From NCBI RefSeq assembly GCF_028641065.1, contig NC_073396.1:3100001-3164000 (forward strand): DNA of 64,000 nucleotides, in the 5' to 3' direction. The notes beneath the pieces are model-generated. The model had not been told where the DNA came from. It saw only the letters and a program-made list of their open reading frames with translations, and did no database searches. This document shows, piece after piece, positions 23,783-31,600 of this stretch (the stretch's first letter is position 1; the number at the start of each line of letters is the position of its first letter). The translations under genes and the position numbers were made by a program. Origin of the DNA: Leucoraja erinacea (lineage: Eukaryota).

Positions 23783-26337
23783 TTTTGTTCAGATGTATAA
23801 TGTGAAAATTTGTTTGCACTAATTTCATGTATTCTCCTTGCCCTTTTCCCACCCAGCTGAGAACAGTTGACACTAGCCACTGTGCAATCTGTGCATGTTT
23901 GCAACTACGAGTGGGGATGAAGCCAAATGCTAAGAGTTACATTCATACAAAGTGTTTCTTTTGCACATTTCCCACCAAGGTGAGGCCGGGGGATTGTTCT
24001 CGAGTTTTTGTCCCCTTTCCATGACCTGCTGAGTTCCACCATTCTCTGGCTGTGGCCTTAGACAATAGACAAGAGGTGCAGGAGTAGGCCATTCGGCCCT
24101 TCGAGCCAGCACCGCCATTCAATGTGATCATGGCTGATCATCCCCAATCAGTACCCCGTTCCTGCCTTCTCCCCGTTCCGGCCTTGTCAGGAGAGGGCTT
24201 GTTGCTGGGACAAACCTTTCCAGATTCGCCAATGAAATATCGGGTATCATGCACAGTAAGGTTGGGATATTTGGGATGAAATGAGCCATTGATTGACGTA
24301 GAGAGTCAATGCTTCAATCCAGGGTGAAGTGACCCACAAAACTCCGATATATTTTGAACACTCCTTTGAGACCTGTTAGCCCAATAGCTCTAACACCCTT
24401 TGGCACTGATTAATTTGAAAGCCTGAAGAACAATATTGCACATTGCCGATGTGGTCACAGTTCATTGTCTAACCATGTAGAACCTGCCAGCGTGTCCCAA
24501 ACAACAGGTGAAGTTATGGGTGCAAAACATGAATTTCTAGCCCCTACCAGATTGATTTTGATTCATTGATGTCATTTAATTTCTTGTATAATGTGACCCA
24601 TTGTCAGTCTGTCTTGAGAGGTGATCTTGGGTTTAAAAACAAGGAATTCCCCACCTTCCCTGTCAGCTCGGAGATGTCTGCATGTCACGTACAGATGTAA
24701 CTGCATGCAGAAGCATGTTATTTTCATATTGGCGCAGTGTATTTTAAACCTTGCCTCAAGGTGTCCATACGTGTGACTGAAAACACTTTACAAGTAGGCT
24801 TAGAGAGCCTGTAACTATATGAAGTGATGGTGTGCATGGAAAATCACCCTCAAATATGAATATATGTTCCAGGGATAGAATTTAACAATGTGGTTTCTAA
24901 ATTCTTTAAAAATGCACAACGAACAATGAATAATGTTGCTTGTTCAGAACTGTAATCACTGGTGAAATGAAGTTAACAAATCCTACTGCCACACGGCATC
25001 GCCCAACACCGTGACATGGGGTGGTGGTGGGGGGGGGGGGGGGGGGGGGTTGAATCAGCAGACCAAGATGGCTGGAAACCAGGGACTGCAGAGGCTGGTT
25101 AACATAAAAAGACACAAAATGTTGGAGTAACTCAGCAGGTCAGGCACCATCTCTGGAGAACATAAATAGGTAGCGCATTGGGTCAGGACCCTTCATTGGA
25201 CCGATTGTAGGGTGGGGTGAGGGGGTAGAGAAAGCTGGAAGAAGGGTCACGGTCCGAAATATCACCTATCTATGTTCTCCAGAGATGCTACATGACCCGC
25301 TGAGTTACTCCTGCACTCTGTGCCTTTTTTGTGGTGAAACAACTAACACTTTAAGTTCACAACACAAAGCCTGCTGTTGGGTTTATAATGTAAAGAAGGA
25401 TTGTTGGGATTTTGTAATGTATTAGAATTTGGTTATCACTGCAATTGATATTTTTAATACACGTTTTGATTCAGTCCCTTTTTTTTGTTGCACAGATAAG
25501 AGTCTAGCTTTTTGCCACTGGGCACCATATCCCTTAACATAAAGCATGCCCTCTTTGTCGATGTTCAACCAGATGGCAGCCTGACCTTTCAACTATTCCT
25601 CTTCAGTCCCTGCTTTCTAATCATGACGTGATCATTACAGCTTATTTAGCAGATTTCTGTGAAATCAAAACTCTCGTGCTTGTGGAGAAATCATTAATAT
25701 AAAGCAAATACTTTCTGCCAATGTCCTGATCAGGTGCAAAGGAATCCAGTCTGGTTGGAAAATAAATATGCAGTTCCTTATGTTTCTGCCAATACTTCCA
25801 AACTGATAATGTGTCAGAAGGAACTGCAGATGCTGGTTTAAACCGAAGTTAGACACAAACAGCTGGAGTAACTCAGTGGAACATGACAGAAAGACATTTC
25901 AAAGCTATGTGGGTTTTTTTAGATTAGAGGGCATGCATTATTACATCGATAGCTAAAATAACCACCCAGTGTCAAATACAAGAGTAAGATCAAGATGGAA
26001 TATGTTAGGCCCTGAAATATTACCAGTGTTTTAATTTCTGTTGGCAATATTTAAGTTTGCAAGACGTGTTGTTCATGCTACTATAATGTTTATCCAACTC
26101 AATGTGACCATAGTGTGTAAATTCTGACCCTGTTACTCGAAGGATTTTTTTTGAAGTACGTTTCAAAATGCACTTTCTTGCTTTTAATTTTGCACGAGAC
26201 TAAATTTTTTTTTAAATGCCAGATACTATTGTAACGTGTAATTATTGTGTCAATTTTTGTTTTGAAAATATATGTCTATTTAATGATTGTCTTGGAAAAT
26301 GTTGTGCCTTCCACTTGTAATCAAACATTGTGTACTT

Positions 26338-26343
26338 AATAAA
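26338..26343 (+). terminator. Candidate SMCR8 polyadenylation signal
   Basis: AATAAA at the end of an AU-rich stretch, followed by a GT/T-rich tract. It implies a 3' UTR of about 5.3 kb. Not verified. Confidence 0.4.
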
Positions 26344-26870
26344 ACATTTTGCAACTCATTCAAAACTTGAAATGTGTTTAAGTTTTTGTAATTGTCAAGT
26401 CGTTGAAGTTGTCCTTGCCCATATACTTTTTTTTTGTACCTGGAAGTCCAATGCTACTTCAAGTCAAGCGTGTTTTATTGTCATATGTCCCAGATAGAAC
26501 AATGACATTCTTATTTGCTGCAGCACAACAGAATATGTAAACATAGTACACTGTAAACTATCATAAACAAGAGAAAAGTTGAGTGTGTATACACATACTC
26601 ACACATAGAGATCATATACACACATCCACACATAGGTATACAGAAACAACAAACAAACTAGATTGATTATGCATGTCAACCAATCACATATAAGTTAGCA
26701 TCACTAACCCCACCCCACTATAACATTTATATTAACACTTGCTTCCAGCACTGCTCAGTTCGAGCAGCAGTTGGGATGTTCGGACATCTAACCATCCTTT
26801 ATGCTGTTAAAATGTATGTGTTGATTAGAGATGATTTTGGATCACATAGTGTGTTTGGGGTCTGTCTATA

Positions 26871-26930
26871 TGGTGTCAGAAGTGGGATTCGAACCCATGC
26901 CTCCAGTCGGAGACCAGAAATTGAGTCTGG
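26871..26930 (-). pseudogene. Processed, 5'-truncated tRNA-Leu(CAA) retrocopy with CCA tail
   Basis: Minus strand: CCAGA CT CAA TT TCTGG TCTCCGACTGGAGGC ATGGG TTCGAAT CCCAC TTCTGAC A CCA (anticodon arm, long variable arm, T arm, acceptor strand, CCA). Flanking direct repeat ggtctgtcta (26859-26868, 26931-26940). Confidence 0.9.
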
Positions 26931-27957
26931 GGTCTGTCTACACAAACAATAATACTGCATTAATAACAATCGTCTTGCGTATTGCGTGCCTAGCCTAAAG
27001 TTACCGGGCAACTTGTTCTATTTGATCTTATTTGAGTGCGCACGCCAGGTTGATTTCATTCATTGAAACAGGGCGGACCATGTGAAGGTTGCAATCTCCC
27101 TACCCCATTAATAACAATAATAGTATATATAGTTCAGAACTGCTTTGAGGCTGTAGGGAAGAAGCTGGAGCAGCTGTTGTTCCGTCATGTTAGTTTTTTT
27201 ATTTACATACATTTCAGGAACACAATCATATTAAGTATAAAGCCACACTGAGTCTGTACACAAGAATCCCCTCCTCTGGATAAAAGACGTGCAATTTACC
27301 TGATCTATCAAATAAACCAATGAGAGTCTGAATCGGTCAAGCTTGCGGTGGGTTTTTTTAAATGCACCTGCAGTCTTTGTTTTTCTTGGTTGAGATATTC
27401 ACCCAGCTCTTTCAAATGACGTCGGTTGACATGTTACACTAAATCAGGTAAAAAGCAGTTTAAAAAAAAACGTGAACTGCCCTCATTTATCATCTTCAAT
27501 TTGCATTTCTCCAGACAGATAAAGATTTAATTTCAAGCTTTCATTTCTGAAGCAACAAAAGTAATTGTCACCTGGACAAACCCATCAGACGTTCCCTTTG
27601 TCTCACCTACATGGAATAAAAGAAGGGTTTCGACCTGAAACGTCGCCTATTTCCTTCTCTCCATAGATGCTGCCTCACCCGCTGAGTTTCTACAGCATTT
27701 GTGTCTACATATGGAAAAAAAATGCTTGTTTTTGCACTTTTCCAACGTTATCACTTTCCACAGATGCTACTTTATGACAGTTTCTATTTTAGGTTATTTT
27801 TTATTGGGGGGGGGGGTTAATCATTATCCAGGCGTCTGCAATTGTTTCCCCTTAACCAACATGGAATGTCTCACTGAGCAACGATAATATACCATAGTGG
27901 TCAGGTGTCCTTGCCTTGGACATTGTGCTGTGATTTGGAGACAATGGGCCGCGCCTT

Positions 27958-28533
27958 GCATTATGGAAGCTGTAGTCCCCTGCCCGGTGCCGCCAATGCC
28001 ACCCACTGTACATCAGACTACATTCCCCATGAGGCTTTGAAATAAAGTTGAAACACCAGTCGAGGTACCTGCGTCTCGGGCGTTGCATTCTGGGAATTGT
28101 AGTCCCCATTATCGGTGCCGCCCAGGTTATCTACCGGTAATTGGACTACATCGCCCATCAGGCTGTGCGACGGTGACGCACGCGTTGCATTGTGGGAAGT
28201 GCTGCCTCTGCCGAACACCGTGCACCGGATTGACCATCAGACTGTGCGCCGATGACGCTGGCGTTGCATGGTGGGAGTTGTAGGCCCAATGTGAGCAGCC
28301 ACTTATCGCGTGACTACATCGTCCATCAGGCCGTGCGGCGGCGCCAGTGACGCAGGTGTTGCAGTGACGCAGTGACGCAGCCGCCAACGCCGCTGACCGA
28401 GGTGGAGACTGCATCGCCCATGAGGCCTTGCGGAGGCGCCAAGGACGCTGGCGGTGCATTGTGGGAGGTGTAGTCCACCGCCCGTAGCCAGCAGCGCCCT
28501 CCACCGGGCAAGAGACTACATCTCCCATGAGGC
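27958..28533. promoter_or_regulatory. Cluster of about 10 ZNF143/THAP11-type (ACTACAnnTCCCAnnATGC-like) motifs in the TMEM11 CpG-island promoter
   Basis: Minus-strand sites at 27958, 28085 (ACTACAATTCCCAGAATGC), 28187, 28266 and 28456. More degenerate plus-strand sites at 28017, 28145, 28313, 28408 and 28515. Confidence 0.75.
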
Positions 28534-28630
28534 AGCGCGGCGGCGCCCGGCCCAGGAGGGGGGGGGGGGGGGGTTGGGGGGGGAGGGGGACGAGCGGAGA
28601 GAAAAATTCCTGCCCTGGATGCCCGGCAAG

Positions 28631-28677
28631 ATGGCGGCTTGTGGTCGGAGGCGCGGAGTGGCGGGGATGAGGGAAAG
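28631..28677 (+). CDS. TMEM11: TMEM11 coding exon 1
   Basis: aagATGG start, MAACGRRRGVAGMRER (human recalled as MAAWGRRR...ARER). Donor AG|gtcagt, phase 2. Confidence 0.9.
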
Positions 28678-31600
28678 GTCAGTGGGAGAGGCGGTCATTG
28701 TACATCGGACGGGTAGACGGAACTCGTCCATTCACCACCACCGCTGCTGCTGCCGCCGGGCCCCATCCTCCACCTGCCCCGGGCCCATCCCCGCTTAAAC
28801 CGACACCGCGGCCTCCGTCCCCCAGCCCAGCGGCCAGGCCCCACGACCCCCACCCCGCAGCCCCGCTCCCCTTATACCGCCACTCCCAGCCCCGCTCCCC
28901 CGGCCCTGGCGCCCCCCCCCTCTGGCTCCAACCCCCCGGCTCCAGCCCAAGGTGGCCTCCACCACCCACAGCCGCGGGGTTTAATATTGACCAGGCGCTA
29001 ACTAAATGCAGGGTCGGTGGGCGAGGGCAGCGTCCCCCACCCACACCAACCCCAGGGGGTGAAGGTGAAGGGGGACAGGGCGTTATACAGTCAAACCCCT
29101 CATTCACCCCCTGTCAACACAACCCACCGTGCTCACAGCCAAAAGCCGTTGTTCTTTATTTAAACTTTATTTCATTACGAAAATATAAGCGAGGAATGCT
29201 ACAGGAACAGTGTAAGTGTACGATACAGGAGTAGAATTGGGCCGCTCGGCCCGTCGAGGCCACTCCGCCATTCAATCATGGCTGATTTCTGATTCCTAGT
29301 CCCATTCTCCTGCCTTCTCCCCATAACCCTTGACACCCGTTCTAATCAAGAATCTCTGCCTTAAAATTAACCACTGACTTGGCCTCCACAACCCACAATG
29401 AGTTCCGCAGATTCACCACCCGAAAGAAGTTCCTCTTCACCTCCTTTCTAAAAGAGTGCCCTTTAATTCTGTGGCAATGACCTCTAGTCCCAGACTCTTC
29501 CACCAGTGGAAACATCCACTCTATGTCCTGTGTATCCACTCAATGCCTTTCATTTTCCGGTAAGTTTCAATGAGGCGTCTCCCCCCCCCCCCCCTTAACC
29601 TTCTAAACTCCAGTGAGTACAGGCCCAGTGCTGTCAAAAGCTCATCGTATGCTTACCCCCCACCCCCCTCCATTCCTGGAATCATTCTTGTAAATGTCCT
29701 CTGGACCCACTCCAGAGCCAGCACATCCTTCCTCAGATATGCCCCCCCCCCCCTTACTATGTCTTCAGTAAATCAGCATATGCTGTTCCTTGTTCCTACT
29801 TATTTTTATTGCTGTCTGGATGAGGGAGTGTAAGGAGAGACCCAAAATGTTTGCAGTAACAGTGGGTCAGGCAGCATCTGTGGTGAAAAGGAAAGGTGAC
29901 ATTTTGGGTCGAGACCATTCTTCGGTCAGAAGTGGTTGGACAAACTTGGATTGTTTTCTCTGGAGGTTAAGGGGACATCTGGTCGAAGTATATAAAATAA
30001 TGAGAGGCATAGATAGGGTAGACAGTCAGAACTTTATCCCAGGGTGGAAATGTCACCCTAGACTAGACTAGAGGGCATAGCTTTCAGGTGAGAGGGGCAA
30101 AGTTTAAAGAAGATGTGCAGGGCAAGTTTTTTACGCTGTGGTTGGTGAGTGCCTGGAACATGCTGCCCAGGGTTGTGGTGGTGGATATAAACGTAGTAGT
30201 GTTTAAGAACCATTTTGACAGGCACGTGGATATGCTGGGAATGGAAGGATATGGGTGACGCACAGGCAGAAGAGATTCCTTTAATTTGGCACCATGATCA
30301 GCATGGACATTGTGGGCCGAAGGGCCTATTCCTGTGCTTTATTCTATTTTCTTAATTCTGGATGTTAAATTTCTCTTGGTGGCCACTGATCAATGCACTG
30401 AATTTACCATTCTGCACCACCTCAAGGTTTTGGGTAGGTCTCAATATTTTTCTCCCTAACCCTTATTTTTTTTAAGGGTCTGCTCACGTTTGATATAACA
30501 ATTAGCTTTTTCCTTCGTTGTCTGGTAATAATTAAAGTTAATCCAAAAAAAAATAAGCAACAGTTTTTGCAAATGCTTTACCTTTTTTTCTGTTTTTAAA
30601 CGGCAGTTGGATTATAAATTTCCATCTACGGAATACGGAAGACTAATTTTATTTCCGTTTGATTCTTCTTGAAGGCCTCGGCTATCGCTACATATCCCAT
30701 CACTTGAGTGCTGTGTATATTTGTATGTTAAAAGGTTGGTGTGTAGGTAAACCTATCAATAAGACAAAAATAGGCCCAACATCAAATACTTACTATACTG
30801 AACAGAACGGTCTATTTATAGGTAGATAGAAAAGCTGGAGAAACTCAGCATTTATGGAGCGAAGGAAATAGGCAACGTTTCGGGTCGAAACCCTTCTCGA
30901 GACTGATGACATGGTCTATTTCTTCAGACATGGTCTATTTATACTCTGGATGCATAAACAATGGATAAAATTATATCTTATTTGTATTGATTGTTAGGTC
31001 AACGGTATTTGCAAAAAAATATTTTGTGTTCACTTCAGCTTAATCCATTGAAGACAGTGAAAGCAGTAAAGTTACTTAGAAATAACGATTCTGAAGAAGG
31101 GTCTCGACCCAAAACGTCTCCTATTTCCTTCGCTCCATAGATGCTGCCTCATCCGCTGAGTTTCTCCAGCATTTTTGTCTACCTTTGCAATAACGATTGG
31201 TATGAGGCATGTGAATGTGGACAGAATTAGCACAACTAGTTGGTGCTAAAGTGGGATGAATCCCCAACAAAAGTAAAACACGCACGCATCAGATGTTAAT
31301 GTTACCCACTCTTTAAAAAGTAATGTGGTGTCAGGCAGTTCATTGCATCGCTTAAGAATAGACAAGAAGGTGTTTCCGATCTCTGGCATTTTTATTGCCT
31401 GTCCATTTTTAATACATGTATATCTGAAAATAAACTGCGGGGAAAAGTTTACAAGTTTTTGATCATAAAAGTCAACTCATAAAATCTGCAGCTTTGTTGA
31501 TACAGTTGAGAAGAATCAAATTTAAGTAAGTTAAATTTTCCACGTTCCATGGATGGAAATTTATAATCCAACTGTCCTTTCATGACAGAAAGGAAAAAGT

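Follow-up and report, generated by a model that had tools for sequence, protein, structure and literature searches.

Plus-strand synthesis in retroviruses normally stops 18 nt into the primer tRNA, at m1A58, and minor stops of the reverse transcriptase (RT) have been noted at positions 55, 54 and 37; read-through prevents normal transfer, and the long read-through products are described as unable to complete synthesis or to integrate, or as inactive templates (in the relevant passages of PMC8599865 and PMC13191261). Delayed second-strand transfer has been described for defective HIV-1 proviruses, of which 44 sequences carry a copy of 7-54 nt of tRNA(Lys3); position 58 is changed in 5 of the 44, and the authors read this change as mutation (in the passages of PMC12657518 that treat these sequences). 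The mechanism itself is therefore already known. The modified bases m1A, m1G, m3C and m2,2G give RT stops and mismatches (according to sections of PMC8062790, PMC4787781 and PMC7969016), and for the human tRNAs Leu-CAG and Ser m3C47d is documented (in the part of PMC7969016 on this modification). LTR-mediated retrocopies of mRNAs arise by microsimilarity template switching, according to an account whose main text has no match for “tRNA” or “PBS” (PMC5131818).

Here we analyse a locus in a 64,000-nt stretch of the Leucoraja erinacea genome (the window; NC_073396.1, positions 3,100,001 to 3,164,000), which is very probably a Gypsy LTR-retrotransposon insertion that arose from failed second strand transfer during reverse transcription. 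The locus resembles the HIV-1 proviruses, as the passages cited above portray them, in its order of LTR, PBS, copy of the primer tRNA and jump to a downstream part of the element. Whereas the HIV-1 case in those passages is somatic and rare, the skate case is germline and fixed, concerns Gypsy and tRNA-Leu(CAA), and makes up about half of the surviving PBS junctions on contig C1; the skate copies also differ from the HIV-1 set in that A58 is changed in 43% of them and two further positions are scarred. As in the retroviral strong-stop reaction outlined in the sources above, modified bases of the primer tRNA appear to set the stops; the stops in the skate copies fall at 47d and G37, against m1A58, 55, 54 and 37 in those retroviral accounts, and the products are instead rescued and inserted with target-site duplications (TSDs). 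Compared with the tRNA-sequencing signatures given in those reports, the skate signal comes from insertions in the genome, the work of an endogenous Gypsy RT, and points to 47d in Leu-CAA. Like the mRNA retrocopies as there described, the skate copies hold host RNA sequence within an LTR element that is discontinuous and has brief stretches of common sequence where its parts join; unlike the case of those captured mRNAs, in the skate it is the primer itself that supplies the host RNA.

Tailless tRNA retropseudogenes mobilised by LINE-1 are also tRNA-derived, lack poly(A) and show apparent direct repeats, and they are free-standing, with a long TSD and no LTR. The window copy shares with them the tRNA origin, the lack of a tail and the apparent repeats, but it differs in being bound to an LTR and in its 5-bp TSD. 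A search of largely open-access literature turned up no account of Gypsy copies in a germline that bear modification scars. The mechanism was known beforehand; what appears new here is its germline, high-frequency Gypsy form and the modification record at three positions.

Structure of the locus and its LTR family

The whole unit reads CAAAC, LTR, tRNA copy, last 15 nt of the LTR, CAAAC, and is made up of the following features:

26654..26658, plus strand: left TSD CAAAC, from the sequence; it terminates a short CAAA-type repeat
26659..26870, plus strand: Gypsy LTR of 212 bp, from family comparison; its 5' end is two letters short and it ends in TA, not CA
26871..26888, plus strand: PBS-length segment of 18 nt, complementary to positions 76-59 of tRNA-Leu(CAA) including the CCA, from exact junctions genome-wide
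26889..26930, minus strand: over-extension of 42 nt, corresponding to positions 58-27 of the spliced tRNA, from alignment to parent genes
26920..26920, minus strand: tRNA position 37, T for G, likely a misincorporation opposite m1G37; 14 of 14 parents have G
26928..26942, plus strand: last 15 nt of the LTR repeated (U5 end, CA intact), from family comparison and a second locus (L095)
26943..26947, plus strand: right TSD CAAAC, from the sequence

The insertion between the TSDs measures 284 bp and has no coding part. Alignment identifies minus-strand 26871-26930 as a 60-nt copy of tRNA-Leu(CAA), positions 27-76, with a CCA end and no intron, just as the initial annotation had described it; the T at position 37 (window 26920), where the parent genes have G, holds as well. 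The copy reads correctly at A58 (26889) and C47d (26906) and carries one CpG-type change, at 26898. The initial annotation had further taken a 10-15-bp direct repeat for the target-site duplication of an insertion made by a retroelement RT, with CR1, Rex1 and Penelope named for a comparison of TSD lengths. A 15-nt repeat with one mismatch does exist (26856-26870 and 26928-26942), but because the 212 bp upstream of the tRNA copy belong to an LTR family, this repeat is an LTR end and its second copy: the left copy is the 3' end of the 212-bp LTR, the right copy is a second LTR end, and the target-site duplication is CAAAC. A LINE-type route with a 10-15-bp TSD is contradicted by the LTR-linked class to which the locus belongs and by the 5-bp TSD.

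In 4 of the 19 other family members compared, the terminal 15 nt match the repeat at 26928-26942 exactly; the first three nucleotides of this repeat, TGG, overlap tRNA positions 29-27 as microhomology. At another locus of the window's LTR family (L095), the sequence re-enters the LTR at the same −15 position. The TA at the LTR end was at one point considered as untemplated bases, and this idea was dropped after the LTR had been identified. The TSD of the window is less secure than the TSDs of the class, because the left CAAAC sits in a low-complexity CAAA run and the initial TG of the LTR is missing.

Members of the window's LTR family are 214 bp long with TG...CA ends and, among the 40 matches scored, are 87-100% alike. 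All 19 other members compared start with TG and 18 end in ACA; nine are solo LTRs with 5-bp TSDs, six follow a PPT and four precede an 18-nt Leu-CAA PBS, one locus (L040) having been moved by hand out of the script's solo class. A two-LTR copy of the family (L229) encodes RT, RNase H and integrase, and a copy of another family with the same PBS (L223) matches PF13650 (weakly), PF00078, PF17917/PF17919, PF17921 and PF00665 in order, which gives the pol order protease-RT-RNaseH-integrase. By domain families and their order, the window's LTR family is assigned to Ty3/Gypsy.

Neither ARAGORN nor Rfam calls a tRNA in the window fragment, and the three open frames near the insertion have no Pfam match. 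The locus is a dead relic with no sign of function, and its value is that of one record in a genome-wide set. Contigs of four public DNA runs were compared over the left flank and the LTR (26150-26850): those of three other organisms span 26150-26490 and show 7-9 differences there, the LTR start is unbridged, and 26630-26653 is without cover. This comparison revealed no empty site. A very high-copy short repeat (26460-26560; summed contig depth in millions) lies 100 bp upstream of the LTR. On the other side, about 1.1 kb from the insertion, is a GC-rich island (28000-29250; 57% over 28001-30000), possibly a promoter or first exon.

Over-extended primer sites across the genome

The genome contains 846 exact junctions of ACA with the 18-nt PBS and 279 exact 27-nt over-extended sites (159 with T opposite A58 and 120 with another letter), while the reversed-pattern control for over-extended sites gave none. 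A 60-mer search returned 302 candidates, of which 40 were scored; among the 30 loci fetched, most CCA-ended copies are then followed by TGT, the reverse complement of the LTR end. On contig C1, where all 79 exact LTR-PBS junctions were examined, 40 are over-extended (13 and 9 fitting the two 27-nt patterns, and 18 of the other 57 extending to at least 33 nt); since a solo LTR no longer has its PBS, this share describes surviving junctions and not insertion events.

We assembled an unbiased set of 128 copies from 98 of the first 100 listed sites with T opposite A58 and the first 30 sites with another letter; BLAST-ranked loci entered the stop statistics only if they also belonged to those first 100 or first 30. 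An LTR-type ACA end stands directly before the tRNA copy in 120 of the 128, which identifies the tRNA as the Gypsy primer. The earlier proposal that an RT had copied a mature tRNA is thus retained as regards the mature, spliced, CCA-bearing template and abandoned as regards a free-standing retrocopy. Among the 128 copies, 87 different LTR ends and 127 different downstream junctions occur. Set against 16 reference copies, 101 run on into the element body or LTR, roughly one in four of these in inverted orientation, and the downstream pieces of the remaining 27 have no match to the 16 reference elements.

A second LTR end lies 6 nt to 6 kb past the tRNA piece in 52 of the 159 over-extended loci whose DNA was fetched; the other 107 have none in the DNA fetched, most of them with only 1.5 kb of flank. 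A 5-bp TSD with at most one mismatch surrounds 33 of the 44 testable units (shuffled mean 1.0, maximum 6) and is absent from 11, eight further units of the 52 being outside the test. Re-entry at most 33 nt from the LTR end, as in the window, occurs in 9 of the 52 units. A narrow pattern for other primer tRNAs (TACA, CCA complement and T-arm, with Leu-type stems excluded) gave 3 matches, against 6 in the reversed control, so that within its limits it offers no sign of primers other than tRNA-Leu.

Metagenome contigs contain 22 stretches in which an LTR-type end is joined to at least 35 nt of tRNA copy, which represent roughly a dozen different junctions. The LTR ends are other ones, ends near 35 and 49 are seen, and short LTR re-entries occur; one of these junctions (two rows) has A opposite A58, and one passes 37. 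The phenomenon is therefore not confined to the L. erinacea genome. Among the C1 loci with no or short extension (L175-L230), many stop at the 18-nt PBS and are then followed by sequence that differs within one LTR family; in many the second LTR is reached within 0.5-4.4 kb, and in L229 the PBS leads straight to the RT domain. Deletions starting at the PBS end seem to be common even without read-through.

Template and position-specific changes in the primer copies

A 21-nt search for the 5' half of the tRNA found 15 places, namely 14 intron-bearing tRNA-Leu(CAA) genes and one spliced copy. G37 is present in all 14 genes, CCA is encoded by none of the 12 whose 3' end was printed, and C stands at 47d in all 16 intron-flanked gene halves; the predicted combination of G37 and an intron in the parent genes was thus borne out. 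Searches with spliced-loop patterns, which gave 4 and 8 matches, found no intronless or T37 parent gene, and all 8 matches of the second pattern are LTR-linked CCA copies. As the parents carry an intron and G37 and lack CCA, the template of the window copy is a mature, spliced, CCA-bearing tRNA. Nine of the intron-bearing Leu-CAA genes are clustered (L245-L253; G000 C12, 6.29-6.33 Mb), six of them with A for G57 in the T-loop, and near this cluster lies an intronless, decayed Leu-like copy without CCA (L027). The spliced copy found by the 21-nt search (L255) is LTR-linked and has T37; extending beyond G26 as far as about position 18, it is the longest copy observed.

A58 is changed in 120 of the 279 over-extended sites, as compared with 112 single changes (391 − 159 − 120) over the other 26 positions, an excess of about 28-fold; a hand count of the cDNA letter among 100 listed sites gave A 68, G 17 and C 15, so that the change is mostly a transversion. 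C47d (sequential numbering of the variable arm) is changed in 46 of the 63 copies that pass it, versus 23 of 930 (2.5%) at fixed columns; on the cDNA strand the 46 changed letters are 35 A, 6 C and 5 T, and the neighbouring positions are nearly invariant. The same position is associated with stops: 28 of 109 copies end at or just before C47d, versus 19 ends across the previous 8 positions (p 2e-10). Further along the primer, stops gather at G37: of the 37 copies that reach length 46, 31 end at lengths 46-49, that is, at most three bases from position 38.

Eleven independent copies clearly pass position 37, where they read T in four, C in two and G in five, so that 6 of the 11 are changed; without the window copy, 5 of 10 are changed (p 2e-6 against 2.5%). 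This small sample leaves out seven loci with at most three matching letters beyond 37 (L023, L004, L110, L028, L018, L069 and L174), takes the pair L024/L025 once, and includes L020, which needs a 1-nt shift. The T37 of the window copy very likely reflects RT misreading of a modified G37, as the initial annotation had proposed in invoking m1G37.

The stop that it had placed at m2,2G26 is weakly supported: 9 of the 11 copies past 37 end at 27-32, but only 2 end exactly at 27, both with junction homology, and in the 2 that run past G26 this base is unchanged. Such a pattern fits a barrier at G26 followed by trimming, without proving it. The expected excess of changes at 37 and 58 in CCA-ended copies is thus borne out, and the expected ends at 27 have weak support. 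The scars at A58 and C47d, the two strongest, had escaped notice because the window copy reads correctly there.

Within one LTR family of 23 copies, scar letters and end points vary freely, and they are therefore not inherited. The changes at the three positions and the stops likely record modifications of the primer, m1A58, m1G37 and a predicted m3C47d, whose names we infer from position and RT signature.

Proposed strand transfer and alternative explanations

According to the mechanism we propose, plus-strand DNA primed at the PPT would copy the LTR and then overrun the usual m1A58 stop into the attached primer tRNA-Leu(CAA). In the case of the window copy, A58 and C47d would have been read correctly, an A would have been put opposite the modified G37, and synthesis would have reached position 27. 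The resulting long tail would be unable to complete normal PBS transfer, so that its 3' TGG may instead have paired with CCA in minus-strand U5, 15 nt from the U5 end, either on a very short minus-strand product or by slipping back on its own template; such pairing would rebuild the CA end, which integrase could then use. For the class as a whole, over-extended plus strands would pair by short homology with incomplete minus-strand DNA, the partner being as short as a few U5 bases or as long as nearly the complete element, and linear DNA with usable ends would be integrated. If the TGG microhomology was used for pairing, then the cDNA had reached position 27, and the modification stop and the CCA microhomology, which had been put forward as alternatives, become compatible. 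What is observed is the anatomy of the locus, its Gypsy family, a spliced template with CCA, the class across the genome and the changes and stops at specific positions; the strand-transfer route with its rebuilding of the right end is one that we infer, this step being illegible in the final sequence. The inverted downstream pieces are unexplained by a simple transfer model.

LINE-mediated copies of small RNAs are known, and both the 15-nt direct repeat and the 3-nt microhomology at the 5' side of the window copy resemble products of TPRT; a non-LTR (LINE-type) RT might accordingly have inserted a copy of a free mature tRNA into a solo LTR already in place, with a 13-15-bp duplication of the target. 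Such an event is highly improbable, as it would require landing exactly at the 3' end of an LTR, in the orientation and register of a PBS, with just the tRNA that fits the PBS of that family. Moreover, 120 of 128 copies sit at LTR ends, most run into the element body and not into a repeated target, and the repeat that flanks the window copy is an LTR end, where a host-sequence TSD independent of the LTR would be needed. Just as little credence can be given to inheritance of the over-extended segment within a non-autonomous element or a long-PBS family, with the letter differences being old variants or later mutations. Two pairs of loci (L102/L103 and L024/L025) do share junctions, and CpG decay is visible in the tRNA copies; however, the 128 copies have 127 different junctions, both the end points and the letters at 58 and 47d vary inside one LTR family, and the changes are limited to three columns against a background of 2.5%, many of them being transversions.

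Two further proposals concern parts of the read-through account. In a variant within our best explanation, and not an alternative to it, the read-through origin is kept, but the right end would have another source: either a complete element with the tail on its 3' LTR was afterwards reduced to a solo LTR, or a longer 3' piece was lost by deletion once integrated. We consider this unlikely, though less so than the other proposals weighed here: solo LTRs are common in the family (9 of 19) and the final sequence would look identical, but the 3' pieces range without a break from 6 nt to 6 kb and TSDs lie round the whole unit, a pattern for which one mechanism suffices, and the re-entry at −15 recurs in L095. 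Somewhat more doubtful still is the idea that variation and stop at C47d result not from m3C but from lost tRNA isodecoders or a variable-arm hairpin. Human m3C47d is reported for Leu-CAG and Ser and not for Leu-CAA (in the part of PMC7969016 cited above), and C47d lies in a hairpin loop, where RT can pause; against this, every gene half has C, all three other letters occur (35, 6 and 5), and structure alone leaves misincorporation at one base unexplained.

Returning to failed strand transfer after primer read-through, we lean, on balance, towards regarding the skate copies as a natural and dateable experiment on tRNA modification, in which frequent primer overrun by Gypsy RT and rescue by microhomology have left hundreds of fixed insertions that report germline m1A58, m1G37 and a previously unreported m3C47d of Leu-CAA; failed plus-strand transfer would then rank among the main origins of the Gypsy copies that survive in this lineage, and other animals would carry the same signature. 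From these insertions the tightness of the m1A58 stop for the RT of an LTR retrotransposon can be judged in vivo and in the germline, and they indicate that long read-through products can be rescued and integrated. They would also make tRNA modifications and their history inferable from assemblies alone, with m3C47d in tRNA-Leu(CAA) as a testable prediction, and account for a class of apparent CCA-ended “tRNA pseudogenes” and for Gypsy copies deleted from the PBS onward.

Some junctions have a more complex structure. At one locus (L239, the same as L002) the pol segment reached by the jump is inverted and itself shows a long homology, of about 13 nt, with tRNA positions 39-27. At six others (L197, L068, L074, L091, L147 and L167) the junction contains parts of the tRNA copy in repeated or inverted form, or else an additional PBS, which suggests several template jumps in succession.
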